DNA of 64,000 nt from assembly GCA_949294555.1 (NCBI GenBank), contig CASFHP010000010.1, positions 34,191 to 98,190 on the forward strand. Direction: 5' to 3'. The DNA is from an uncultured Eubacteriales bacterium. GTDB lineage: Bacteria; Bacillota; Clostridia; TANB77; CAG-508. This document shows positions 9,574 to 58,432 of this stretch, one piece after another. The translations under genes and the position numbers were made by a program. Within the stretch, counting starts at the first letter, position 1. Each line of letters starts with the position of its first letter. The notes beneath the pieces are model-generated. The model worked only from the letters and a program-made list of their open reading frames with translations. It did no database searches and was not told the DNA's origin.

Positions 9574-10464
9574 TTAGTTTTTTCTTAATTCTTCTAATAA
9601 ATCTTGATATGCTTCTTCTGTAATCGTATCATCGGAATTTTTATCAATCAACCAAATATGTTTTGCTTGCTCATATTCTTTAATTTCTACATCTCCACCA
9701 ACTTCTTGAGCTTTTTCTTGTAATAATTGGCAATCTGGCTCCAATATATCATATGTACCTATCCATATTTTGATATTTTTTAAAGTTGACAAATCGCCTT
9801 CTATCGGATTTACCAAATAACCATCTATCCCATCTGCTCCTGCATAGGCAATGCCAGCAATTCGCAAAGCTTCCTTATTTAAAACTGTATCATTTTTCTC
9901 AACCGCTTGGATATTTTCATTTTCTAATCTAACATCTAACCATGGCGAAATTAAAATGGTTTTAGCAGGAAGTCCCATATTTCCTTCTGCAATTTTTTCA
10001 TATAGTCCAAGTGCTAAGCCACCGCCTGCGGAATCTCCCATAAAGATGACATTATCATTTCCAACTTTTTCTATAATTTCTTTATATAATGGCTCTACCA
10101 TAGCATACACTTCTTTATATGTATTTTTAGGGGTTAATGGATAATCTGGCATAATCACTGTATATCCTGTATCTTTAACAAGCTGTTCCAAAAAATCCCA
10201 ATGATTTTGGGTTGCTTCTGCCATATATGAGCCTCCATGGAAATATACAATATATTTAGAATTTCCATTTTCTTCTGTGTTTTTTGGTGTAATGGTAAAT
10301 ACTTTTCTTTCCATGTATGTATATGTTTGTATTTCACATTCTTCTATGACCTGCTCTGGTTCGTTGGTTTCGATGTCTGTATTAAAAAAATAGGCTATGG
10401 TTAATGTTAAGATAATCATGCACAATGCTAGTATTACAATAATACTTCTTATAAATTCTTTCAT
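9574..10464 (-). CDS. Alpha/beta hydrolase (HSL/esterase-lipase type) with an N-terminal membrane anchor
   Basis: Oxyanion motif HGGSY and nucleophile elbow GDSAGG. I prefer the start at 10464 because the track ATG at 10476 sits directly on the SD (aaaggaATGag). Confidence 0.8.
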   Translation of the reverse strand: MKEFIRSIIVILALCMIILTLTIAYFFNTDIETNEPEQVIEECEIQTYTYMERKVFTITPKNTEENGNSKYIVYFHGGSYMAEATQNHWDFLEQLVKDTGYTVIMPDYPLTPKNTYKEVYAMVEPLYKEIIEKVGNDNVIFMGDSAGGGLALGLYEKIAEGNMGLPAKTILISPWLDVRLENENIQAVEKNDTVLNKEALRIAGIAYAGADGIDGYLVNPIEGDLSTLKNIKIWIGTYDILEPDCQLLQEKAQEVGGDVEIKEYEQAKHIWLIDKNSDDTITEEAYQDLLEELRKN

Positions 10465-10607
10465 TTTTACTCTCATTCCTTTTGCTTTCTATCATTTTTA
10501 TAAACAGTATTTTACCATATCTCCTTGACGAAATACAAGTTTTATTATACTAAAAAAGTAGCTACATAAATTATACTTTACATATAATCCTGTAACTACT
10601 TTTATGC

Positions 10608-10643
10608 AAAATGTCTCAAAAGGAAACGTCCCCAATTGGACAC
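10608..10643 (+). repeat. GGGGAC-core repeat, family B copy 2 (identical 36-mer)
   Basis: aaaatgtctcaaaaggaaacgtccccaattggacac. Its last base overlaps the xerD stop codon (cta, 10643-10645). Confidence 0.9.
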
Positions 10644-11524
10644 TATGCTCTTGGATGTGCTTTTTTATAAATATCTCTTAAGCCTTCATCTTGGAATTGC
10701 ATATATACTTGTGTTGATGATATGTCTGAATGTCCAAGCATTGTTTGAATTGCTCTTAAGTCTGCACCATTTTGTAATAAATGTGTTGCAAATGAATGTC
10801 TCAAAACATGTGGTGTGATATCTTTTGTGATATGTGCTTGTTCTTTGTAATATTTAATAATTTTCCAAAATCCTTGTCTTGTAAGTCTGCCACCATTTAT
10901 ATTGACAAATAATGCTTTTTCATCTTCGCTTTTGATTAATACACCTCTTGCTTCTTCTATATATGCTTTTAATGCTTTTAGTGACATAGAACCTAATGGA
11001 ATAATTCTTTGTTTATTTCCGTTTTTACAGATGACATAAGCTTCCTCTAAGTTAACATCATCTATGTCTAAAGATATAATTTCTGTTACTCTCATTCCTG
11101 TTGCATAAGCAAATTCTAGCATTGCTTTATCTCTTACACCTTTTAAATCAACCGTGTCTGGTTGTTTTAGTAGCAACTCTACTTCTTTAGAAGTTAATAC
11201 ATTTGGTGTTCTTTTTTCTATTTTTGGAGATTGTATATTGGCTGTTGGGTCTACTTTTATTTTCTTATTTTTTAAGATAAATTGGAAGAATGACCTAATA
11301 GATGCAATACATCTTGATATACTTGAAGGTTTTTTTCCTTTATCTTGTAATTCTTGTATATAGTTTTGTACATCTTCTTCTTTTACTCGATTATAGTGAA
11401 TTCCGTGCTCCTCTAAATATTCTCTAAATTGTTTTAAATCTCTCTTATATGATTCCAATGTGTTTTTTGATAATTTTTTGTCATTTTCTAAAAAGTTAAA
11501 AAAGAATTTTAATTGTCTATCCAT
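10643..11524 (-). CDS. xerD: Tyrosine recombinase XerD/XerC type
   Basis: 293 aa. Motifs ATGMRVTEI, HVLRHSFATHLL, LGHSDISSTQVYM. Housekeeping-like neighbourhood next to spoIIM. Confidence 0.8.
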   Translation of the reverse strand: MDRQLKFFFNFLENDKKLSKNTLESYKRDLKQFREYLEEHGIHYNRVKEEDVQNYIQELQDKGKKPSSISRCIASIRSFFQFILKNKKIKVDPTANIQSPKIEKRTPNVLTSKEVELLLKQPDTVDLKGVRDKAMLEFAYATGMRVTEIISLDIDDVNLEEAYVICKNGNKQRIIPLGSMSLKALKAYIEEARGVLIKSEDEKALFVNINGGRLTRQGFWKIIKYYKEQAHITKDITPHVLRHSFATHLLQNGADLRAIQTMLGHSDISSTQVYMQFQDEGLRDIYKKAHPRA

Positions 11525-11625
11525 GTTTTTTCCCCTACCTCTATATTTTTAAAATTGTATTTACATAAACTATATATGTTATATCAAACTATTAAAAAAA
11601 AGTAAATACATTTTTCGATATTTTT

Positions 11626-12264
11626 TTAAAAATATTTAATAACCATTTTCAATAGATTTGTAGATAAAAAGATTTCTATTACGGCTGAAATACATAAAAT
11701 AATCAACATAATCCCTGAAAATACTGTGTGTCTCAAGATTTCTAACTTTACATTTTCTTTTGTCTTATCTTTTACAATAGATTTATATAGTTTAATGCCA
11801 CTAACAGCAATTGCTAGCATTGCTGGGATAAATAACAAATTTTGTAATACCAATGTTACCAATACAAAGCTAATTCCTTTTCCTAGGCCCATAATGGTAA
11901 TACATAAAGAAATGGTATATCCTAGGCAAAATCCTCTATATATAATGATGGCAAATACGACTGGTATACCAATTACTGTTGTTCCAAAAAACCAAATAAC
12001 AATTGCTAGTAGTGCATTTTGTGTAATGGCATTTCGTAATAGTCCTATATAATCCATACTTTCTAAACTTTTAAATTTTTCTATAAATTGGTTTAAATAA
12101 TTGGTAATTTCTGTTTTGGGTTCTTCTTGTAAATGGTTTATGAAAAACACACCACTAAATATGCCTATCACAAATACAAAAAAGATAATCAGATATTCTT
12201 TTTTGTTGTGAATAACATGTTCTTTGATAATTTTTAATATTTTCAATTGTTTCTTTTCTTTCAT
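11626..12264 (-). CDS. spoIIM: Stage II sporulation protein M
   Basis: 212 aa polytopic membrane protein whose length and topology fit SpoIIM. Assigned by recalled similarity. Confidence 0.65.
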   Translation of the reverse strand: MKEKKQLKILKIIKEHVIHNKKEYLIIFFVFVIGIFSGVFFINHLQEEPKTEITNYLNQFIEKFKSLESMDYIGLLRNAITQNALLAIVIWFFGTTVIGIPVVFAIIIYRGFCLGYTISLCITIMGLGKGISFVLVTLVLQNLLFIPAMLAIAVSGIKLYKSIVKDKTKENVKLEILRHTVFSGIMLIILCISAVIEIFLSTNLLKMVIKYF

Positions 12265-12393
12265 AAAAAACTCCTTATCGCTTATACATAATGTGTATTC
12301 GATAAGAAGATTTATAGAACTATAATTTTTTATTTTAAAACATTCTCTATTTTGCTAAGCGTTATATTATATTTTTATAATATATAAAAATAT

Positions 12394-13581
12394 TTAAACT
12401 ACTTTTCCGTAGTTTCCGCCACCACCTGATTGTACTTTACATTCTCCCATTCTTGCTTTTTCTATGGTGTTTGCAATTTTTTCTCCTACAACTGCCTCTA
12501 TATCATCTTTTGATAATTTGTGAAGAATATTCATTTCTGTATCAAAGGTATCTAATAGTTTGGTAATTGTCTTTCCTCCAACCCCTGGAATAAATCCTAA
12601 TGGAATTTGATATACATATGGTGGTCGATTTTCTGGACTTTTTGATTCTTGTTTATCTCGAATTAATTCTATTCTATCAAAAACACCAAATGTCACATTT
12701 TTTCCACCACAATATGGACAAGTTTCAACTGGCTCTTTGGTCTCTATTGCTTTTTCACAATCATCACAATAGGTTCTATGATATTTTCCAAGTTTTGGGT
12801 CTAATCCATAATTGGCAACAACTTTTCTTCCATCTTCATTTTTTAATGCTTTTACAATTTCTTTAAACGATATATCTTCTACTTGCATTTTGTTGTATTC
12901 TCTTGCAATTTTAGGTAATGAATGGGCGTCTGAATTGGTAACAAATGTCTTGTTCTCTAATTCTGATATCATGTCTGCTAAGTAGGTATCTGAACTCAAG
13001 CCTAATTCTACTGCAAAAATTTTATCATATTTTTCTTTAAATATATATTGCAATCTATCTGTACAATTTCCATAATAGCTTTTATATGGTGTAAAAATAT
13101 GGGCTGGAATTAATATACCATTATATTTTTCTACCATATCAATTAAATCATATCCTGATAAATCAGACCTCTGTGTACTTAATGTTATATTTTTTAAATG
13201 ATGACTTAATTCATTAGAAAATCCTTTAATATCTGTTAAATGTGGAAAGAAACAAATATTATGGGCTGCCCCTTTCTTTCCATTTCTGCCTTCTTCTGAA
13301 GTTTCTACTTCACTTCCTAGCAATATACAAACTTTATCTTTATAGATAATACCGCCATCTTCTAGTTCATAGGCGTCTCCTGTTTGCAAAAAATTCTCGA
13401 TATCTTCTATAACATATGGAGAGGCACAATCAATAATTCCTACAACCTGAATTCCTTTTCTGTCTGCACATTCTTTGGCAATGTTTGCAAAATTCAAAGA
13501 CCTTGCCGCTGTAATTTTTATTGGCTTTCCATTTTCACTTCTTCCTATGTGTACATGTAAATCTGCAAATATTTCGTACAT
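12394..13581 (-). CDS. Endonuclease Q-like PHP-domain protein
   Basis: 395 aa. N-terminal ADLHVHIGRS (PHP metal site) and a C-terminal Cys cluster CDDC...CPYCGG. Confidence 0.7.
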   Translation of the reverse strand: MYEIFADLHVHIGRSENGKPIKITAARSLNFANIAKECADRKGIQVVGIIDCASPYVIEDIENFLQTGDAYELEDGGIIYKDKVCILLGSEVETSEEGRNGKKGAAHNICFFPHLTDIKGFSNELSHHLKNITLSTQRSDLSGYDLIDMVEKYNGILIPAHIFTPYKSYYGNCTDRLQYIFKEKYDKIFAVELGLSSDTYLADMISELENKTFVTNSDAHSLPKIAREYNKMQVEDISFKEIVKALKNEDGRKVVANYGLDPKLGKYHRTYCDDCEKAIETKEPVETCPYCGGKNVTFGVFDRIELIRDKQESKSPENRPPYVYQIPLGFIPGVGGKTITKLLDTFDTEMNILHKLSKDDIEAVVGEKIANTIEKARMGECKVQSGGGGNYGKVV

Positions 13582-13605
13582 TTTAATACCTCTTTTCTTG
13601 TTTCA

Positions 13606-13734
13606 AGTTGCCAAAAGGTGATGATTTGGGGACGGAGATAAAATCATCATTTCCTATGAATTATTTTGTTTGATTTTTTTGAATACGAAATGATGATTTT
13701 ATCTCCGTCCCCAAATCATCACCTTTTGGCAACT
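13606..13734. repeat. GGGGAC-core repeat, family A: 129-bp hairpin with perfect 48-bp arms
   Basis: agttgccaaaaggtgatgatttggggacggagataaaatcatcatttc (13606-13653) is the exact reverse complement of 13687-13734. The loop is 33 nt. Confidence 0.9.
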
Positions 13735-13748
13735 TTTGGCAATTTTAT

Positions 13749-14552
13749 TTAATTTTCATTTTTTAATTTTTCGCCTTGCATACTATTTTCTTCTGCAATA
13801 TGTGCTAATATTTTTTTCGTTGTTTCTTCACTAAATAATGGTCTATTGGCATCTTTAAACATTTCCGCTTTTACGTCTTTTCTGTATTCTTCTACTGCCT
13901 TATCTATTTTTGGTTCATATTCATAGCATACTTTTTTGATAAAATCTTTTACATCTTCTGTTTCATTATGTATTTTTACTAGTCGTCTTAAAGATTTCAT
14001 TGATGTTAAATCTGTTAACTCTATTTGTTCCATCATTTGCACAAATTCTCCAAATGTGTGTAAAAATCGGTTATATTGCCCTTTTAGATTTCTGTGTTCT
14101 AATAATACCATGGCTTCATCTGGTTGGAATCCGATTCTTTCTGGTCTGTCTAATAACATTCCTCCAAATTGGTCTACCAATTCTAGCACGTCACTTTCTC
14201 TTTCTCTTGGATTACTGTTACTATATCGATTAATTTCTTCACACATTTTACAAAATCTTTTGTCAAATCCTAATGTTAATAAATAATCTGCGCCTTCTTT
14301 TGCATATGAATGAACTTTTTCTATATCTTGTGCATTATCTACTTTTTTACAATTACATAATAGACAAGCTGTTAGGATTAAATTGATATCAACATCTACT
14401 TTCATATAGTTTACAAACATTCTTGCAATTTCTGTTTTGAATATAACAGATTTGTCAAAAAATATTTTTGTCTTTTTGGCTAAATAATAGGTTATTTCCA
14501 TTTTTGCCGCCAAGTTTTGTTCGTCTAAAATGTAATTCGCAAATGTATCCAT
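13749..14552 (-). CDS. Hypothetical protein
   Basis: 267-aa intact ORF in a syntenic operon-like position. I recognise no motif. Confidence 0.5.
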   Translation of the reverse strand: MDTFANYILDEQNLAAKMEITYYLAKKTKIFFDKSVIFKTEIARMFVNYMKVDVDINLILTACLLCNCKKVDNAQDIEKVHSYAKEGADYLLTLGFDKRFCKMCEEINRYSNSNPRERESDVLELVDQFGGMLLDRPERIGFQPDEAMVLLEHRNLKGQYNRFLHTFGEFVQMMEQIELTDLTSMKSLRRLVKIHNETEDVKDFIKKVCYEYEPKIDKAVEEYRKDVKAEMFKDANRPLFSEETTKKILAHIAEENSMQGEKLKNEN

Positions 14553-23329: not shown

Positions 23330-24682
23330 ATGAAAAAACGTGTTTTTATAACATTATTTTTAATTTTAATTTTAGTAGCAAATTTGTCTTTTGCTTCTTA
23401 TGAAACTGTTACTATGACGGTTGTCGAAGAACCTGTATGTACAATCGAGATTGGAGAAAATTCTAGTTTTGAGAAAAGATTAATTGAAAAAAATCTAAAT
23501 GATAAAGAAGTTACTCTTCAATTACAGGTAACCAATGAAGAGACCTCAATTCAACCAACTGGAGAAATTATGTTAGTTATTGACAACTCTTTGAGTATGG
23601 AAGAAACAGTTGATGATGGAACAACTACTCGAGAAGAATTGGTTATTGAATCTGCTAATACATTGGTCAATACCATTTTAGAGGGAAATGATAATTTACA
23701 AGTTGGTGTTGTTAGTTTCTCAACAAATGAAGATGTTTCTTTAGAAGGAACCATTAATGACGCTAGTTTAGTTTCTGATTTATCTTCTGACCCTCAAGCT
23801 TTAGTATCTGCAATTTCTAATATTCAATACACTGGACCTAGAACAGACTTAGAAGCAGGACTAAATTTAGCTAGCCAATATTTTACAGAAGAAGATAACA
23901 ACAAATATATCATTGTTTTAACAGATGGTATACCAAATGTTGCCTTAAATTATGATGGTATGTATTATTCTGATGATGTAATTAATAAGACAAAAGCACA
24001 ATTACAAGCTCTAGATACTGCTGGATATGATGTTATCACAATGCTTACAGGCATTACAGAAACAGACAGTGTTCCTGCAACTAGACAAGATGATAAAACT
24101 TATGGAGATATCATCGAAGAAATCTTTGGTACTGAAGAAAATCCAACAGTTGGAAAATTCTATAATATACAAGATAATGAAATTGAACAAACCATTACCA
24201 ATGATATTTATAATGACCTATTACCAATTGAACAAGTCTTAACAGATATTACTGTTACAGATTATTTCCCTCAAGAAATCATTGACAATTTTGAATTTGC
24301 TTATGTGTCTGAGCCAAATATCGGAACAGTATCTGCTGAAGTCAACACAGAAAACAATTCTATTACATGGACCATTTCTGAACTACAACCAGGAGAAACA
24401 GCAACTGTACAATATACTTTAAGTTTAAAAGAAGATTTTGATGAAAGTATTGTTGGTCCTATCTTAGATACAAACGAAAGAGTGGATATTACGTATACAA
24501 GTCTTAATGGAGAAACTGTTGAAGATACCTCTGATGTTACACCTAAATTAAAACTTACAGAACCACCTGTTGTATTACCAGCAGCTGGTAGACCAATTAT
24601 GATAGCTTTATTTGTAGTTGGTATTGGAATTCTTGTTTATTCATTCTCAAGATTCACCTTTCTTAACAAAAATATGAAATAG
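23330..24682 (+). CDS. Secreted von Willebrand factor A domain protein with a C-terminal LPxxG-like anchor
   Basis: 450 aa with a signal peptide. MIDAS motifs DNSLSM and LTDGIPN. The C-terminus reads LPAAG, then a hydrophobic helix, then a basic tail. Confidence 0.75.
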   Translation: MKKRVFITLFLILILVANLSFASYETVTMTVVEEPVCTIEIGENSSFEKRLIEKNLNDKEVTLQLQVTNEETSIQPTGEIMLVIDNSLSMEETVDDGTTTREELVIESANTLVNTILEGNDNLQVGVVSFSTNEDVSLEGTINDASLVSDLSSDPQALVSAISNIQYTGPRTDLEAGLNLASQYFTEEDNNKYIIVLTDGIPNVALNYDGMYYSDDVINKTKAQLQALDTAGYDVITMLTGITETDSVPATRQDDKTYGDIIEEIFGTEENPTVGKFYNIQDNEIEQTITNDIYNDLLPIEQVLTDITVTDYFPQEIIDNFEFAYVSEPNIGTVSAEVNTENNSITWTISELQPGETATVQYTLSLKEDFDESIVGPILDTNERVDITYTSLNGETVEDTSDVTPKLKLTEPPVVLPAAGRPIMIALFVVGIGILVYSFSRFTFLNKNMK

Positions 24683-25180
24683 GACAATTTGGGACAGGTT
24701 GGGTTTTGTGGGACATTTTTGGTTTAAAAAAAAATAAAAAAAGTATGCATTTTTTGTGAAAAGTTTGTACAAAAACAAACTGGACCAACATGTAATCATA
24801 CTGGTTTGTTGTTCTTCTCTTGTTTTTTCATTTGTTTGATATGTTTTCTTTTTAACAAGGAAATCTGGATTATATTTTTCTCTTAATTTATTTTGATAAG
24901 TTTCCTCATTTTTTCTTAAATTGCTTTGTATTTCTTGTTTTTGTTTTTCATTACACAAATATTTTACAGATATCATAGCAATAATTGCTTTTGTTTTATC
25001 TTTTAAATTCATTTCGTTAAGAGGTTTATCATGGTCTAAATTTGGTTTATAGGACGTGGATTGATTTTCCCTCCAAAACGCTATTAATTTCTGCGGAATT
25101 TTATTTTTTAATTTCTCATCTGTATGGTCTAAAATATCTAGTATTTCTACCATTGCTTCCCTATATTCCACACTTAGCAT
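24647..25180 (-). CDS. Hypothetical protein (third gene of the amidoligase cassette)
   Basis: 177-aa ORF, 10 nt downstream of the amidoligase gene. Its last ~50 codons read through the 27-bp repeat and into the 3' end of the convergent VWA gene, so the true C-terminus is uncertain. Confidence 0.5.
   Translation of the reverse strand: MLSVEYREAMVEILDILDHTDEKLKNKIPQKLIAFWRENQSTSYKPNLDHDKPLNEMNLKDKTKAIIAMISVKYLCNEKQKQEIQSNLRKNEETYQNKLREKYNPDFLVKKKTYQTNEKTREEQQTSMITCWSSLFLYKLFTKNAYFFYFFLNQKCPTKPNLSQIVLFHIFVKKGES
24683..24709 (+). repeat. 27-bp direct repeat, copy 1 (family C), starting one base after the VWA stop
   Basis: gacaatttgggacaggttgggttttgt, identical to 27844-27870. Confidence 0.95.
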
Positions 25181-25190
25181 TTGTATCCTC

Positions 25191-27284
25191 CTATCCTCGA
25201 ATTCCTTCTTGTTGCTCTCGTATTCCGTTTATTCCTCTTATTGTTTCTTGTTCAATATTACCAACAGTTTCGTAACGTTCTTGATTTGCTACGTCGACAA
25301 ATTCTTCTAGTTTATGAGATTTTTTTAGACCTAATTTTCCTACAAAATTTATTTCTCTTAATGGATTATCTTCTTCACGCATATTTTCTAATATTTTTAC
25401 ATTTTCTATATATCTTGTTCTATAAACTTCTTTTTCATCTTCAAAAAATAGTAAATCTAGTAATAATTCCATTTTTTCTTTTTCTGGTAAATCTTCTTTC
25501 AATTTTTCTTTTAATTCTAAGTTTGTCTTTTCCTCTTCTGTTATTTGTTCTTTCTTTTCGATTTCTACTAATTCCTGCGATACTTGTACAATTCTTCCAA
25601 ATAGTCGTATATTTTCAATCCATGTGTCTGGATTTTTTGTTCCATTTGCTACTCTAAATTCGATTGTATTTTTACCATTATTAACATTTAGTAGATTCAT
25701 TCCAAAGAATTTTTCTCCATCTTGTACAGATTGTATTCCTGATATCAATTCTTCTAGGTCTTCTTCTCCATCAATTTGAATACTACCTTTTTTAATTGCC
25801 TCCTCGATTATTGATGTAAATGATGCTGCATTCTGATCAACTTCACTTCTAGGTATATTCCCAGGCTCATTACTCATTAAATACATAATTCTTTCTGTAT
25901 TTCCCCAGATTTCAAATAAATTTAAATAAGATTCTTTACTAGTTAAATAATCTGCACCTATGTGAACATGTCCACCACAGTTATCTGTTGCTTCTTGCCC
26001 TATTTGTTCTAACATTTGGCAAACCATGTAAATTTCTTCTACATTATCTGGTGTATCTCGTAAAATAGGAGAAATTGTTTCTGCACCTTTATTCGGTTCT
26101 AAACTGCCATCATATTCTATTTTCCAATGTCTTTTTATTTCAAAGAAGTCATCTCTTCTTTCGATAATTTTTTCTAATTGGCATAACTTTCTTCCTTTTG
26201 GTCCTTCTGTTTCAATTTCTATACCAATTGTCATTTCTGGTCCTAAATCGATTTCTTGATATTTTCTATTTTGCTTTAGGAAAAGTTCTTTTAATGTTTC
26301 TCTATCTTTTAAAGACATTTGAATAAGCACCTGATTTGCTTTTTCTTTCATCGTTTTAGCTAATGATAATTTTTGTTCATCATTTTGAAGTGTAGCAAAA
26401 ACCATTGATTGATTAGTTTCATCTTTTAGTTTTGTTTGTGCATACTGTAACTTAAAATCCTCATCCTCTATACTCATTAATATTTGTGTAATATCTTCTT
26501 CGGTTTTAGCATAAGATAATGATTGCTTTTTTAATTTATCTTCTTTCAATGAATTAATAATTTCATCTTTATATTTTTCTTCTATAACAGGTATATATTG
26601 TAATCTATCTTCTTCTGGTAATGTTATAATAATCTTTAATTTATTTATATCTGATTTTAAATTTGTAATTGCCTTTTCTTTATTTTTTATATCATTTATT
26701 TGTTCTATTAATGACATTTTTTCATAATCTGTGTGTAATACTGTTACTGCTTGCAATAATTGTTCATCATTTTCAAATGAAATGCTTTCTATTACCTTTT
26801 TTCTTTCATAATCGTCATCAATAATATAGTACAAACCATCAATTTTGTTTTCTGTATTTATAAATGTAGTAATAATTTCTCTACGATTACTCATATTTGT
26901 TATGTAGTAAAACATAGCCTCCATTTTATTTTTATCTAATTGCATTGTCTTAATAATTTCAGTTCTTGCATATTCATCTTGAAACATTGCTAAACTTTCT
27001 GATTTTTCATGATCTGATGTTATACTTTTAGCAACATTTACCGCTCTTATACTATCTTGTGGTAAATTTCTTATATAGTCCAACTTTAAATCATCTGACT
27101 GTAAACTGCAAATCAATTCATCTACATCATTTTCATACAATAAATGCATCATTTTTAATTTATTTTCATCTTTTAGTAAATGCATAACTAAAAATTTGAT
27201 ATAAGCATAATTGGTTTCTTCTTTTAGCCTCTCTAGCTTTTGCTCTTCTGTTAAATTAATTAATCTTTCTTCTCTTTTATCCAT
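25191..27284 (-). CDS. Repeat-domain protein with a C-terminal amidoligase (glutamine-synthetase-like COOH-NH2 ligase, Amidoligase_2-type) domain
   Basis: 697 aa. C-terminal motifs IGIEIETEG, KIEYDGS, AETISPIL, CGGHVHIG, NTIEFRVANG. The N-terminal ~340 aa consist of about 12 helical repeats. Confidence 0.65.
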   Translation of the reverse strand: MDKREERLINLTEEQKLERLKEETNYAYIKFLVMHLLKDENKLKMMHLLYENDVDELICSLQSDDLKLDYIRNLPQDSIRAVNVAKSITSDHEKSESLAMFQDEYARTEIIKTMQLDKNKMEAMFYYITNMSNRREIITTFINTENKIDGLYYIIDDDYERKKVIESISFENDEQLLQAVTVLHTDYEKMSLIEQINDIKNKEKAITNLKSDINKLKIIITLPEEDRLQYIPVIEEKYKDEIINSLKEDKLKKQSLSYAKTEEDITQILMSIEDEDFKLQYAQTKLKDETNQSMVFATLQNDEQKLSLAKTMKEKANQVLIQMSLKDRETLKELFLKQNRKYQEIDLGPEMTIGIEIETEGPKGRKLCQLEKIIERRDDFFEIKRHWKIEYDGSLEPNKGAETISPILRDTPDNVEEIYMVCQMLEQIGQEATDNCGGHVHIGADYLTSKESYLNLFEIWGNTERIMYLMSNEPGNIPRSEVDQNAASFTSIIEEAIKKGSIQIDGEEDLEELISGIQSVQDGEKFFGMNLLNVNNGKNTIEFRVANGTKNPDTWIENIRLFGRIVQVSQELVEIEKKEQITEEEKTNLELKEKLKEDLPEKEKMELLLDLLFFEDEKEVYRTRYIENVKILENMREEDNPLREINFVGKLGLKKSHKLEEFVDVANQERYETVGNIEQETIRGINGIREQQEGIRG

Positions 27285-27301
27285 TGTATCCTCAATTCCT
27301 T

Positions 27302-27703
27302 TTATTTATCTTCTAAATATTTTTGCATAATTTGATTTGCGAATGAATTAACAATAATATAATTGTCTTTTATATCATTTTGGTTAATATATTTTCCAAA
27401 TATATTTGCTTCTTTTGCTTCTAATAAATAAAATTTCTGAAGTTGTAGCATAGAAAGTATATATGTAAATTCATCATATAAAATCATGGCATTTGATATA
27501 TCTTTTATTACATTTCTATCTTTCCATTTTATAATAGGAATATTATCCAGTGTTGTATTTGCCACCGCCTTTTTCTCTAATTCTTCTTCTCTTTGCTCAG
27601 TTGTCACCTCATAATAATTTGGATGTATAAAGTTTTTCACTAAACTTTCTATGTCATTATATTTGTATGTATTCTTTCCTTCAATAACAATCAGTTTTTC
27701 CAT
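27302..27703 (-). CDS. Hypothetical protein (first gene of the amidoligase cassette)
   Basis: 133-aa ORF, 17 nt upstream of the amidoligase gene. SD is caggagaa. No motif recognised. Confidence 0.5.
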   Translation of the reverse strand: MEKLIVIEGKNTYKYNDIESLVKNFIHPNYYEVTTEQREEELEKKAVANTTLDNIPIIKWKDRNVIKDISNAMILYDEFTYILSMLQLQKFYLLEAKEANIFGKYINQNDIKDNYIIVNSFANQIMQKYLEDK

Positions 27704-27780
27704 TACTATTTTCTCCTGTTCATTATTTTTATTACTTTTGTATAAAAACTATGTTTTTAAATTATATATTCTTACTATGA

Positions 27781-27809
27781 ATTCTATACTAATCGTAAGA
27801 AAAAATCAA
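27781..27809 (-). promoter_or_regulatory. Promoter of the amidoligase cassette
   Basis: On the minus strand: TTGATT (27804-27809), 17-nt spacer, TAGAAT (27781-27786). It lies inside the repeat-bounded segment. Confidence 0.5.
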
Positions 27810-27843
27810 TAGAAGAAACAATTCTAGCTCGGTTAAATTTTGA

Positions 27844-27957
27844 GACAATTTGGGACAGGTTGGGTTTTGTAGCACTTTTGTCGAATATTGTCGTTTAAAA
27901 TTATTTTATCTTTAAACGACAATATTCGACAAAAATCCCAACCTGTCCCAAATTGTC
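27844..27957. repeat. 114-bp long hairpin (family C) whose left arm is 27-bp direct repeat copy 2; the right arm abuts the eno stop
   Basis: Outer arms 27844-27870 / 27930-27957. The inner stem is a perfect 24 bp, ttttgtcgaatattgtcgtttaaa / tttaaacgacaatattcgacaaaa. Confidence 0.9.
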
Positions 27958-29217
27958 CTATTCACTTTCAATTTTTAATAATCGGTTATATTTTGCAACT
28001 CTATCTGTTCTACAAGGTGCACCTGTTTTGATTTGCATACTATTAACACCTACTGCAATATCTGCAATTGTTGTATCTTCTGTTTCTCCAGATCTATGAG
28101 AAATAATTGTTTTATAGCCATTTTCTTTTGCCATTTGAATTGTATCCAAGGTTTCTGTTAATGTTCCTATTTGATTTGGTTTTATTAGAATAGCATTTGC
28201 TACTTTTTTGTCTATTCCTCTTCTTAATCTAGACATATTGGTTACAAACAAATCATCTCCTACCAATTGAATTTTCTTTCCTAATTTTTCTGTTAGAATT
28301 TGCCAATTGTCCCAATCCTCTTCTGCTAACCCATCTTCTATTGATACAATTGGATATTTGTTACATAAATTTACTAAATAGTCTATCATTTCTTCATTTG
28401 TTTTTAAGACATCTGTTTTCCAGAAATAGTAACCATCTTTTCCAATCTTTTTGGCTTCTTCTTTCATTTCTGTACTTGCAACATCTAAGGCTAATACAAT
28501 GTCTTTTCCTGGTTCATATCCTGCTTTTTTGATTGCTTCTATGATAACATCTAAAGCCATTTCTTCATTTTCTAGATTTGGTGCAAAACCGCCTTCGTCT
28601 CCTACACCAACTGCAAATCCTTTTTCTTTTAATACATTTTTTAAGGTATGATAAATTTCTGCACCTCTACGTAATCTTTCTGCAAATGTAATATCTCCTA
28701 TTGGCATTATCATAAATTCTTGAATACTAATATTATTTTCTGAATGTTTACCTCCGTTTAATATGTTCATCATTGGAACAGGCAGTTTTTTTGCGTTAAT
28801 TCCACCTATATATCTGTATAGTTCAATTCCTAATGTATTACTTGCTGCTTTTGCTACTGCTAATGAAACACCTAAAATCGCATTTGCTCCCAAATTAGAT
28901 TTGTTTAATGTGTCGTCTAGTCGTATCATTTCTTCATCTATTTTTCTTTGCTCAAATACATTCATGCCAATGATTTTTTTACTAATTTTTTTATTAACAT
29001 TTTCGACTGCTTTTAAGACCCCTTTTCCATTATATCGATTTTTCTCCCCATCACGTAATTCTACTGCTTCAAAACTTCCTGTTGAAGCACCTGATGGCAC
29101 TGCTGCCACACCACATATTCCCTCTTCTGTTACTACCTCTACTTGTAAAGTAGGATTTCCTCTTGAGTCCAATATTTCTATTGCCTCTACATTTTTAATT
29201 AATGAACTCTTTTTCAT
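27958..29217 (-). CDS. eno: Enolase
   Basis: Motifs [32 protein letters not shown]. Start at 29217 ([10 protein letters not shown]) after an aaaggagg SD. Confidence 0.97.
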
Positions 29218-29306
29218 AAAACCTCCTTTTTGAGCAACACTGCTCTTCAAAAAATATTCTATTTACATATATATACAGTTTTTACAATTTCATGAAATCT
29301 ATACAT

Positions 29307-30941
29307 TTAACTTGCTTTTTTATTTCTTAGTTCATATGCATATTGTAGAGTTACTTCATTAATTTCTCCTGATGAAATTCTGGCAATTTCTTCTATGACT
29401 TCATTTTCTTTTAATAATCTAATTTGTGTTTTGGTTCTTTCTTCTTTCACGTTTTTACTAATAAAATAGTTGTAATCTGCCATAGCTGCAATATTTGGCA
29501 AATGTGATATGCACATTACTTGATGTTTTTTAGCAATTGCTTTTAATTTTACAGCTACTGCATTTGCTGCCTTTCCACTAATTCCTGTATCGATTTCGTC
29601 AAATACCAATACAGGTATACTGTCTGTGTCTGCTAATACCTTTTTGATAGCCAACATCGTCCTTGACATTTCTCCACCAGATGCAATTTTTGATAATTCT
29701 TTTTCATCTTCTCCTAAGTTTGTTGTAATATAAAATTTAACAATGTCTTTTCCTGTTTTGAAAAATTCATTTTCTATATAATCTACCTTGACATTTATTT
29801 TTGCATTTTTCATTTCTAAATCAACTAATTCTTGATTAATATTTTCACTTAATTTTTTTGCATATTCTGTTCTTATCATATTCATTTTCTTAGCAATTGT
29901 ATTCATATTTTTCTTTATTTTTTCTAACTCTTTTTTTAATTGATTATTATGTTCTTCTAAATTTTCTATATGATAAATCTCTTCTTTTACCTGTTCATTA
30001 TATGCTAAAATTTCTTGTATGCTATTACCATATTTTCTTTTTAAAGAATAAATGATATCTAGTCTTTCTTCTATAGCATTTCTTTCATCAGCGTCAAAGT
30101 AAACATCTTCTTTGTAACTACTAATATCTCTGGCTAATTCTTGTAATTCATAATAAGAGCTTTTTAAACTAGTTGTTACAGTTTCATATTTTTTATCGAT
30201 GTTTTCAATTTTTTCTAATGCACGAATTGCCATGCTTAAACTATCTATTGTGCTTTCAGACAATAGACTATCTGCTTCATTTAAATTATCTGCTATTTTT
30301 TCTGAGTTTAAAAATATATTTCTTTTTTCTTCTAATGTTTCTTCTTCATTTTCTTTTAATTTTGCCTGTTCGATTTCTTCTGTTTGATATCTTAACAAGT
30401 CTAACTTTCTTTGTCTTTCTTTATCATCTCCATAATTTTGTTTTAATTCTTCTTTAATTTCTAAATAACGTCTATATAATTCTTTATATTTTGCTTTATC
30501 TTCTCCTAATATTGATTTTCCAATAAATCCATCTAAATATTTTAAATGTAATTTATTGTCTAATAAATTTTGGTTGTCATTTTGTCCATGAATTTCTATA
30601 AATTGCTTCATAAAATCTCTCAATTCATTAACTGTTGCCATTCTTCCATTAATTTTGCACATATTTTTACCATTTGCATTAATTTCTCTTGAAACGATGA
30701 TGTTTCCTTCTATTGCATGTTCATTTTCTGGACAATATAAGCAAAGTTCAACAAAGGCATTTGTTTCTCCCTTTCTTAGCATATCTTTGGAAAATCTGCC
30801 TCCTGATATAATTTGAAGTGAATCTATAATTAGTGTTTTTCCTGCTCCAGTTTCTCCTGTTAATACATTTAGTCCCTTATTAAAATCAATATTTAGATCT
30901 TCTATAATTCCTATGTTTTTAATATGTAAAGATGATATCAT
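29307..30941 (-). CDS. recN: DNA repair protein RecN
   Basis: N-terminal LHIKNIGIIEDL...LTGETGAGKT, a long coiled coil, and C-terminal ASGGEMSRTMLA...VFDEIDTGISG. Start taken at MISSLHIKN. Confidence 0.93.
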   Translation of the reverse strand: MISSLHIKNIGIIEDLNIDFNKGLNVLTGETGAGKTLIIDSLQIISGGRFSKDMLRKGETNAFVELCLYCPENEHAIEGNIIVSREINANGKNMCKINGRMATVNELRDFMKQFIEIHGQNDNQNLLDNKLHLKYLDGFIGKSILGEDKAKYKELYRRYLEIKEELKQNYGDDKERQRKLDLLRYQTEEIEQAKLKENEEETLEEKRNIFLNSEKIADNLNEADSLLSESTIDSLSMAIRALEKIENIDKKYETVTTSLKSSYYELQELARDISSYKEDVYFDADERNAIEERLDIIYSLKRKYGNSIQEILAYNEQVKEEIYHIENLEEHNNQLKKELEKIKKNMNTIAKKMNMIRTEYAKKLSENINQELVDLEMKNAKINVKVDYIENEFFKTGKDIVKFYITTNLGEDEKELSKIASGGEMSRTMLAIKKVLADTDSIPVLVFDEIDTGISGKAANAVAVKLKAIAKKHQVMCISHLPNIAAMADYNYFISKNVKEERTKTQIRLLKENEVIEEIARISSGEINEVTLQYAYELRNKKAS

Positions 30942-31195
30942 AACACATTCCTCGACTTTCATTTATTTTACAAAATAGTCTGTGCTATTTTGCTAGTATT
31001 AGCATTTTTTGTACAATATTATATTTATATATTAAAACAAATCTATATTCACTAGACCTTTTCTATAATTTTTAACATTTACTATATTAATGTAAGATCT
31101 AGCAAGAAGCATATAAGATTTGTTGTGCAAAAAATTGTTTTACAATTGTCTGTACAATTTTTTTAGATTATAGGAAATTGTATTTGCTATAACCT

Positions 31196-58183: not shown

Positions 58184-58432
58184 TGTTAATGTTCATCTGT
58201 ACGTATACGAGTGGGAAGTATTTATAAATTATTTAATTACGAATGTGATTGGAGATGTTTTAGAATTTATTACATAATTTATTGAGGAATGTTCACGGTA
58301 CTCACGTAGTGAGGGTCTGAGTGAAAGAGGCTCAAATAAATTATGTTACAAATTCTTAAATATCGTATTGAGCTGAGTAATAAATAATTTATAAATACTT
58401 CCCACTCGTATACGTACAGATGAACATTAACA
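58184..58432. repeat. 249-bp imperfect palindrome (MITE-like or structured element) P2
   Basis: Perfect outer arms of about 52 nt, tgttaatgttcatctgtacgtatacgagtgggaagtatttataaattattta / its reverse complement. Inner arms are agaatttattacataatttatt / aaataaattatgttacaaattct. The central mini-hairpin is ctcacgtagtgag. Confidence 0.9.

Follow-up and report, generated by a model that had tools for sequence, protein, structure and literature searches.

In the current study, three adjacent genes were examined in a 64,000-nucleotide (nt) stretch of contig CASFHP010000010.1 from an uncultured Eubacteriales bacterium, the whole of which is hereafter called the window, with coordinates counted from its first letter. 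The genes lie between that of enolase (eno) and that of a VWA-domain protein and encode, according to the list of open reading frames (ORFs) of the window, a protein of 133 amino acid (aa) residues (ORF1), a 697-aa protein in which an α-solenoid precedes an amidoligase domain, and a protein of 177 aa (ORF3). Together, ORF1, the solenoid-amidoligase and ORF3 are a conserved, self-contained and so far undescribed three-gene module. An earlier note on this DNA had regarded the module as a mobile cassette and the identical 27-mers that bracket it as the trace of its insertion; in the current analysis these 27-mers appear to be the arms of two copies of a dispersed palindrome family, and we lean slightly towards the view that the cassette is an old resident of its chromosomal site.

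Conservation of the three-gene module

The integrity of the module is evident from its recurrence. ORF1 adjoins the amidoligase gene in all 40 of the 40 loci that carry ORF1, and these loci represent approximately seven distinct genomic contexts in which the gene order is permuted. The order ORF1-amidoligase-ORF3 is found between eno and the VWA gene and next to a P-type ATPase gene, ORF1-amidoligase next to valS, amidoligase-ORF1-ORF3 after NUDIX and GNAT genes, amidoligase-ORF3-ORF1 after an LD-carboxypeptidase gene, and amidoligase-ORF1 near a serine recombinase gene. Across these contexts the genes of the triad are 1–17 nt apart or overlap, and no other neighbour is common to all of them. 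The association of homologues of the small ORFs with amidoligase genes, to which the earlier note had drawn attention, is therefore present in several unrelated contexts, and its statement that no system of this three-gene composition has been described also holds, as no description of the triad, of ORF1 or of ORF3 was found in the literature searched. In the same literature, Amidoligase_2 enzymes appear as predictions or annotations only, with no substrate or assay reported, and a paper on a Klebsiella “amidoligase” concerns an ATP-grasp enzyme that is irrelevant to the triad. The partners described for this family, namely a GAT-like peptidase and an Aig2/gamma-glutamyl cyclotransferase, were not seen in the contexts examined.

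Certain of these neighbourhoods may be described in their own right. AbiE (AbiEi/AbiEii) and a PtuA-like ATPase occur as strain-variable neighbours in other lineages. In loci L072–L074, an LD-carboxypeptidase gene (Peptidase_S66) lies 25 nt upstream of the amidoligase gene (e.g. L072, 4963–5976), and a second, split amidoligase paralogue is located approximately 2 kb downstream of the triad (e.g. L072, 9752–10922). In loci L057–L061 (1–7928), the region upstream of the ORF1-amidoligase pair contains a strain-variable island with GNAT, KilA-N and CutA1 genes, and in L060 a PtuA-like ATPase gene, followed by a conserved four-gene block that encodes an RsgA-like GTPase, an RNase III-like protein, a 168-aa protein and a DUF6591 protein.

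The solenoid-amidoligase

The 697-aa protein matches the Pfam family Amidoligase_2 (PF12224) at 52.8 bits against a cut-off of 22 (E = 6e-14), with residues 351–564 covering positions 3–243 of the 245 in the profile, and it also matches PHROG 2443, “amidoligase enzyme” (E = 1e-21). An AlphaFold2 (AF2) model of the protein, with a predicted local distance difference test (pLDDT) score of 89, comprises the solenoid, the catalytic domain and a helical tail. In Foldseek, the catalytic half of this model matched YbdK (1r8g and 1tt4) with a probability of 1.0, and glutamine synthetases and gamma-glutamylmethylamide synthetase (GmaS) with probabilities of 0.92–1.0; a sequence search of the Protein Data Bank (PDB) with the amidoligase gave no real match. 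The amidoligase call of the earlier note, made from the letters alone, is upheld by the profile scores above cut-off, the PHROG match and the YbdK/glutamine-synthetase fold.

Nine residues do not vary across 42 homologues, namely G354, E356, E358, H439, H441, R479, E542, F543 and R544. It is established for glutamine synthetase that metal and ATP are bound by residues of the E-x-E, H-x-H and E-x-R type, and by analogy the same pattern in the amidoligase probably corresponds to them. The enzyme is apparently active.

The solenoid (residues 1–335) is modelled as 26 short helices with pLDDT mostly above 90, and in Foldseek the N-terminal half resembles HEAT, TPR and designed helical repeat proteins. 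It is the fastest-evolving part of the protein and its repeat number varies: strains of a sister lineage that share an identical ORF1 possess amidoligases of 784, 758 and 680 aa, which differ by the in-frame loss of one and four 26-aa repeat units. Repeats of the DUF4116 type are carried by one homologue (P0081).

The opposite end of the protein also differs between relatives. In L014, L021, L024, L025 and L027 (the L014 group) the amidoligase is 639 aa long, and a remnant of the C-terminal tail is present in another frame (e.g. L014, 9904–10100) within the 185 nt that separate it from ORF3. An old frameshift, which was tolerated, seems to have removed the low-confidence C-terminal helix.

ORF1 and ORF3

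ORF1 has 242 homologues at approximately 60% identity and falls into 129 clusters among 1.8 billion representatives, nearly all of which are standalone proteins of about 135 aa; the few longer proteins in that set contain no informative domain, a single weak PTA_PTB match being probably spurious. Its AF2 model is confident (pLDDT 92; predicted template modelling score 0.87) and of the alpha/beta type. Foldseek searches of the PDB and BFVD with this model gave no match (best E values 1.6 and 0.44), and ORF1 may accordingly represent a new fold. Two candidate functions were discarded, that of a Pup-like or LysW-like carrier acting through the C-terminus, as the C-terminus is not conserved, and that of a gamma-glutamyl cyclotransferase, for lack of a fold match.

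For ORF3, 48 homologues were recovered, in which a conserved helical N-terminal domain of approximately 110 aa is followed by a variable linker, the canonical length being 143–155 aa. The hydrophobic moment is 0.75 for the C-terminal helix of the relatives, which places it among the highest 1% of shuffles, and 0.19 for the tail of the window protein; so low a value weakens the idea that this tail represents a diverged allele of the amphipathic helix. Profile scans of ORF1 and ORF3 against Pfam, PADLOC, NCBIfam and PHROG returned nothing meaningful, sequence searches of the PDB with the ORF1 and ORF3 profiles gave no real match, and neither a signal peptide nor a transmembrane segment is present in any of the three proteins.

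Layout of the locus

The features of the locus are as follows.

23330–24682, plus strand: flanking VWA gene (ORF), encoding a 450-aa protein of secreted surface type, convergent with the cassette
24683–24709, plus strand: left 27-mer copy, a solo arm of the GGGAC-type palindromic element; its similarity to the right copy runs to 24718
24710–24795, no strand: window-specific 86-nt segment, in the place of the hairpin interior, right arm and canonical ORF3 3′ end of sister contigs
24647–25180, minus strand: ORF3, 177 aa as it stands (48 homologues; canonical length as given above)
25191–27284, minus strand: amidoligase, whole ORF, 697 aa
25194–25538, minus strand: predicted C-terminal helical region of the amidoligase, aa 583–697 (AF2 model; the last long helix is of low confidence)
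25557–26228, minus strand: catalytic amidoligase domain of glutamine-synthetase fold, aa 353–576 (PF12224, invariant columns and Foldseek)
26280–27284, minus strand: predicted N-terminal α-solenoid, aa 1–335, approximately 13 two-helix repeats of about 26 aa (AF2 and Foldseek)
27302–27703, minus strand: ORF1, 133 aa, putative alpha/beta partner protein (242 homologues; AF2 model)
27781–27809, minus strand: promoter-like motif TTGATT-17-TAGAAT upstream of ORF1 (9 of 12 matches to the motif)
27844–27957, no strand: complete palindromic element at the eno stop, with outer arms 27844–27870 and 27931–27957 and inner stem 27876–27899 and 27911–27934
27958–29250, minus strand: flanking enolase gene (eno; ORF), with Enolase_N and Enolase_C domains on the same gene in contig L001

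Running from the eno side to the VWA side, the order is ORF1, amidoligase and ORF3, all on the minus strand with gaps of 17 and 10 nt, and the GC content is 0.22–0.32 in the cassette and 0.24–0.35 in the flanks. The earlier note had described a complete expression unit, and nothing else, between the two 27-mers. The three ORFs with their lengths and gaps are as it reported, whereas the 177-aa ORF does not stay within the repeats but crosses the left copy. The promoter sequence is indeed present at 27809–27781, but motifs of this kind occur at chance density (26 against 21.9 ± 4.4 in shuffles), and since they are not enriched over shuffles in such AT-rich DNA the motif alone is no evidence of a promoter; its sequence is kept in the heads of the cassette contigs L003, L010 and L013. 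The flanking genes are convergent, as had been stated, but only one can be called a housekeeping gene, as the VWA protein is of a secreted surface type with VWA and pilin-like Ig domains (Pfam VWA_2, E = 4e-16; GBS104-like pilin Ig, E = 7e-4). A signal-like segment is present at its N-terminus, and an LPAAG motif precedes a hydrophobic segment and a basic C-terminal tail, so that the protein looks like a sortase-anchored adhesin or pilus-tip protein, and it is kept at 55–98% identity across all 37 related species. No recombinase, transposase or integrase was found in or beside the cassette (domains of the three ORFs; flanks recN/eno and VWA/dxs), and no phage genes were seen in the cassette flanks.

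The cassette in related genomes

Species-representative genomes were scanned with the VWA protein, which yielded 37 loci, all from metagenome-assembled genomes of uncultured Clostridia, several of which bear the names of chicken or rabbit samples. Six of these species loci contain the cassette (L020, on contig CALWZZ010000049.1, and L021, L024, L025, L027 and L036), and in approximately 26 the site is empty, the VWA stop being followed by 49–329 nt and then by the eno stop. Empty spacers contain either a plain bidirectional terminator (L023, L030 and L052–L054) or one long GGGAC-type palindrome (L028, L031, L032, L033 and L035). The empty site anticipated by the earlier note, a VWA stop, a single hairpin and an eno stop, does therefore exist in relatives such as L028 and L035. 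In a tree of the VWA and eno sequences the cassette is confined to one clade, inside which its distribution is patchy, and the outgroups are all empty.

Where the cassette occurs in the relatives L008, L011 and L014, the synteny recN-eno-[ORF1-amidoligase-ORF3]-VWA-dxs is the same as in the window. Compared with L008, L011 and L014, respectively, the flank proteins of the window are 98%, 98% and 88–94% identical and the amidoligase is 84%, 80% and 47.5% identical. Nonsynonymous (dN) and synonymous (dS) divergence between the window and these three relatives was estimated by the Nei-Gojobori method. Cassette dS is 0.16–0.28 against 0.14–0.22 in the flanks for L008, and approximately 1.0 against 0.6–0.86 for L014, whereas dN/dS is 0.3–0.4 in ORF1 and the amidoligase against 0.04–0.1 in the flanks, with dN highest in the solenoid. 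Since cassette dS is close to flank dS and the excess lies in dN, the cassette and the chromosome have diverged together, the cassette under a constraint that is weaker or in part diversifying.

Two loci bear upon the patchiness. In L036 the cassette is decayed, with ORF1 missing and the amidoligase split. In L029 the spacer is empty and the eno-recN block (10206–13218, against 27960–30974 of the window) is 95.3% identical in nucleotides, compared with 83.6% for the VWA-dxs block and approximately 89% for the DNA beyond recN, the boundary falling exactly at the eno stop; because identity steps from 95.3% to 83.6% at that point, a recombination tract, a mosaic of approximately 3 kb, ends in the VWA–eno spacer. 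Loss and recombination of the flanks explain the patchy distribution, given the decay in L036 and the boundary of L029 at the spacer. A further locus from a more distant species, L048, carries an unrelated two-gene insert in the same spacer (11516–14144), encoding proteins of 601 and 284 aa that by eye resemble secreted surface-type proteins, and because of this unrelated insert the spacer may be viewed as a general hotspot for accessory genes.

We consider it somewhat more probable than its negation that the cassette has resided for a long time, by vertical inheritance, in the VWA–eno spacer of a single genus-level clade of uncultured gut Clostridia, and this estimate covers jointly the mechanism that follows. 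The operon would decay or be deleted in many lineages and be exchanged by homologous recombination with tracts that end in the VWA–eno spacer, its proteins would evolve several-fold faster than their neighbours, and the GGGAC palindromes would be a fast-turning-over family that settles directly downstream of stop codons and has, in this species group, one copy at each end of the operon.

Palindromic elements and the left junction

The sequence GACAATTTGGGACAGGTTGGGTTTTGT occurs exactly at 24683–24709 and at 27844–27870 on the plus strand, with none expected by chance (100 shuffles), so that the perfect 27-bp direct repeats of the earlier note are confirmed; the similarity between the left and right copies extends to 36 nt at 92%, and a third copy with two mismatches lies on the minus strand at 27931–27957. 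It is also correct that the first copy begins at the base after the TAG of the VWA gene, whose ORF ends at 24682, and that the second forms the left arm of a long hairpin at the eno stop. This eno-side hairpin (114 nt, 27844–27957) has a DNA folding energy of −47.4 kcal/mol (z = −14) and an inner perfect stem of 24 bp, and its right arm ends 1 base before the eno stop (27958). Among the hairpins that flank the cassette here and in relatives, stems measure 21–53 bp and folding energies range from −47 to −119 kcal/mol.

Elements of this type are not restricted to the cassette. Long GGGAC-rich hairpins with GGGGACGGAG motifs are also intergenic, downstream of genes, at 920–974 and 13605–13735 of the window, and similar elements occupy syntenic and non-syntenic sites in relatives (L024, 3151–3275; L026, 6865–7198; L037, 6950–7069), which agrees with the description of the hairpin as a REP-type dispersed element in the earlier note. 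The exact subfamily of the cassette hairpins was seen within the 64 kb only at the cassette. A metagenome scan for the repeat core gave 13 matches, all in unrelated contigs of 47–61% GC and hence at chance level, and a search of Rfam with the eno-side hairpin gave only generic long-hairpin (miRNA-precursor-like) matches below the gathering score. In L001 and L020 the VWA-side copy would allow a target-site duplication of the form TA/G...C/TA, and the eno-side copy is flanked by TTGA and CTA. A different long palindrome, approximately 250 nt in length with perfect arms of 52 nt (tgttaatgttcatctgtacgtatacgagtgggaag...), lies at 58184–58432 of the window and has look-alikes in L033 (7328–7557) and L024 (17226–17474); it possibly represents a second family, of a MITE-like kind.

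The flanking elements differ among relatives that carry the cassette. L001, L008 and L020, the species group of the window, in which L008 and L020 are the relatives with flanks of 98% identity, have a complete 112-nt hairpin at the VWA side that abuts the stop codons of ORF3 and the VWA gene, giving a two-hairpin layout, and direct repeats are found in this group only, being absent in L011, L021, L024, L025, L027 and L036. L011 has two different, non-identical hairpins. In the L014 group (with L021, L024, L025 and L027) the VWA-side element is a plain terminator and the hairpin beside eno is a different one, of the GGGGAC type. Because cassette-bearing relatives carry non-identical hairpins or a plain terminator, only one species group possesses the 27-bp direct repeat, and the two 27-mers appear to be the arms of two copies of a dispersed GGGAC-rich palindrome family rather than an insertion footprint.

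It is against this background that the proposal of the earlier note must be judged, namely that a hairpin already present between eno and the VWA gene received, or captured, a mobile cassette of three genes and had one of its arms duplicated in the process. The exact repeats that bracket the genes in the window speak for it, as do the related species, such as L028 and L035, in which an empty site holds one hairpin of this family, and the presence of the triad in other chromosomal contexts of other Clostridia, from which it follows that the triad has moved at some time. However, sister assemblies carry two complete hairpins and none that is split, the repeat is no signature of the cassette, since it is missing from L011 and from L021, L024, L025 and L027, the hairpin family is dispersed over unrelated sites, and ORF3 crosses the left repeat. 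There is, moreover, no integrase or transposase in or beside the cassette, and cassette dS near that of the flanks opposes a recent arrival. Of the features by which an islet would be recognised, empty sites were found, whereas repeats at both ends in every relative, a recombinase and a deviant divergence or composition were not. The earlier note had itself named two observations that would tell against mobility: an absence of empty sites is not what is seen, since such sites exist, but the 27-mers do turn out to be copies of a dispersed repeat. On this evidence the proposal is very improbable. A circular element of 3 kb behind the cassette-only contigs was discarded as a reading, since these contigs end in hairpin arms, in keeping with assembly breaks at palindromes.

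The left junction of the window itself is peculiar. ORF3 as it stands runs through the left 27-mer and 36 nt into the VWA gene, and removal of one A from the A9 (24726–24734) or A7 (24736–24742) run restores an ORF3 of 151 aa, which lies within the length range of the family. These two runs within the 3′ end of ORF3 constitute a 1-nt switch between 151 and 177 aa that could be sequencing error or slippage-prone variation. Contig L001 of the European Nucleotide Archive encodes an identical 697-aa protein; at each of its ends 200 nt agree exactly with the window, and over 1.1 kb aligned around the ORF3 junction it is identical save for approximately 160 nt at the ORF3 3′ end. In L001, ORF3 is 149 aa long and a second complete hairpin exactly bridges the stops of ORF3 and the VWA gene (TAG-GACAATTTGGG...CCCAAATTGTC-CTA).

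Either strain variation or a mis-assembly at the palindrome lies behind the left junction of the window. That the solo arm and the 177-aa ORF3 are an assembly or sequencing artefact at the palindrome and homopolymers, the true sequence being like L001, has in our estimation a little less than an even chance. It would fit with the agreement of L001 and the window over a compared 15.7 kb except at this segment, with the single-nucleotide change that gives a family-length ORF3, and with the failure to match the 86-nt segment (24710–24795) in any other fetched locus or to find the exact 177-aa product on record by exact look-up. The behaviour of short-read contigs points in the same direction, L006 and L007 ending inside the hairpin arm and the cassette-only contig L003 being bounded by the arm at both ends. 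Contig L002, in contrast, comes from a separate sample and has a similar continuation after the arm that is not that of L001 (GGGGGATTTTTGGTTTTAA against GGGACATTTTTGGTTTAAAA in the window), and the frame-restored ORF3 tail somewhat resembles the family C-terminus, though it is not amphipathic.

Being placed exactly on stop codons and marking a spacer that is prone to recombination, the GGGAC-rich palindromes are of wider relevance, as they bear on the gain and loss of accessory genes and on the breaks in short-read assemblies.

Proposed function

From these features a working model of the triad may be proposed. The three tightly coupled products would form a complex in which the α-solenoid, variable in length, would bind a protein, peptide or polymer target. 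The glutamine-synthetase-fold domain would employ ATP to activate a carboxylate as an acyl-phosphate and join it to an amine, yielding an amide or isopeptide bond. ORF1 may be an obligate cofactor or substrate of this reaction, and ORF3, where present, may tether the complex to the membrane by its amphipathic C-terminal helix.

A role in inter-genomic conflict, for example in defence against phages or other mobile elements, is the most plausible of those considered, though a tentative suggestion with less than an even chance, and some other accessory function is conceivable. It is hinted at by the patchy distribution, the raised dN/dS and the variable repeat number, by AbiE and the PtuA-like ATPase as strain-variable neighbours in other lineages, and by the phage profile PHROG 2443. 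The proposal in its entirety, that ORF1, the solenoid-amidoligase and ORF3 make up an undescribed system of gut Clostridia in which a solenoid-directed ligase and a partner of new fold perform an amide modification in the service of defence or conflict, is doubtful. Its main alternative, that the triad modifies the envelope or surface proteins by adding an amine or amino acid to peptidoglycan peptides, teichoic acids or a surface protein, with ORF3 recruiting it to the membrane, is likewise rather unlikely. Such a function would suit the amphipathic C-terminal helix of ORF3, the LD-carboxypeptidase gene immediately upstream in the L072–L074 context and the position of the module convergent with a sortase-type VWA surface protein in the window, and modification of cell-wall receptors has been predicted for Amidoligase_2 enzymes (Iyer et al. 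2009, as cited in PMC11318856). Yet no envelope gene is a consistent neighbour across the approximately seven contexts, most species with the VWA gene are without the cassette, signal peptides and transmembrane segments are absent from all three proteins, and the α-solenoid suggests a cytoplasmic protein or peptide as the ligand.

Several observations weigh against the favoured account of a resident conflict system. Complex formation, substrate and membrane tethering are points that we infer. The neighbours in the window are ordinary genes and not those of a defence island, no toxin-type effector domain is visible in the three proteins, and none of them, including both versions of ORF3, has a match in PADLOC-DB v2 at E ≤ 1. 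ORF1 is conserved at approximately 60% identity across lineages, which would be unusual for a component of an arms race. No relative of ORF1 was found among the viral contigs of IMG/VR, and the reading of the triad as a phage module is not borne out, as only the amidoligase domain has a PHROG family. With regard to inheritance, a dN/dS of 0.3–0.4 fits relaxed constraint as well as diversifying selection, and in L011 the dS of ORF1 and the amidoligase is 2–3 times that of the flanks, which indicates some exchange or import of alleles rather than de novo insertion. A single ancient gain through a mobile mechanism is conceivable, and the account does not cover the left junction of the window, where 86 unique nt come after a solo arm.

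Should the proposal be correct, the Amidoligase_2 family would gain its first assigned function, and systems of this sort a new effector chemistry. If the triad makes amide modifications of proteins or peptides, a new chemistry would be added to the post-translational ones of Firmicutes, possibly together with a conflict system of a new type. The locus is a compact and well-delimited entry into an uncharacterised enzyme family, with three co-inherited genes, one of them encoding a partner without a known fold, and a modelled enzyme whose active-site residues are intact. It also offers usable natural variation in the form of repeat-number alleles, decayed copies and species with and without the cassette.

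Comparison with known systems

The palindromes of the locus resemble REP/BIME, Correia and RUP-type elements in being long, dispersed, intergenic and imperfectly conserved, with terminal inverted repeats, and in the clade of the window they likewise sit just after stop codons and vary between close strains. They differ in that this family (GACAATTTGGGACAGG... and GGGGACG motifs) matches no Rfam family and in that a target-site duplication is not consistent. Integron cassettes with attC hairpins share with the locus an imperfect hairpin, promoter-proximal or gene-flanking, beside a small gene set. In contrast to these, the locus has neither integrase nor attI, its hairpins do not close each cassette at the 3′ end, hairpin and cassette are not conserved together, and the operon has its own promoter-like region; an integron-cassette reading was rejected for the missing integrase and for hairpins that are not linked to the cassette.

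Among enzymes, residues 353–576 find their best structural matches in the YbdK/GCS2 carboxylate-amine ligases and in glutamine synthetase, with a presumed chemistry through an acyl-phosphate, although identity is only 11–12%, the solenoid and the C-terminal helical region are additional and no oligomeric ring is implied. PafA and Pup resemble the module, by analogy only, in the pairing of a ligase of the glutamine synthetase superfamily with a small adjacent partner, so that protein modification is plausible. ORF1, however, is a folded alpha/beta domain of 133 aa without a conserved C-terminal Glu/Gln or Gly-Gly, and the context includes no proteasome or depupylase.

The closest relatives are the Amidoligase_2 systems. 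Iyer, Abhiman, Burroughs and Aravind are said to have predicted, in Mol Biosyst in 2009, glutamine-synthetase-like amidoligase systems of the PF12224 type, which reportedly occur for the most part in phages and prophages and have as their neighbour a GAT-like thiol peptidase in Proteobacteria or an Aig2/gamma-glutamyl cyclotransferase in Firmicutes. The triad has in common with these systems the catalytic domain, the glutamine-synthetase/YbdK fold with its metal and ATP residues, a small self-contained operon and a substrate that has not been assigned. It differs from them in having two unannotated families as partners instead of a peptidase or cyclotransferase, in the 13-repeat α-solenoid of variable copy number and in its chromosomal location. 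The Amidoligase_2 family was known beforehand from computational work, and ORF1, ORF3 and the triad that they form with the solenoid-amidoligase are, as far as the literature searched shows, newly described here.

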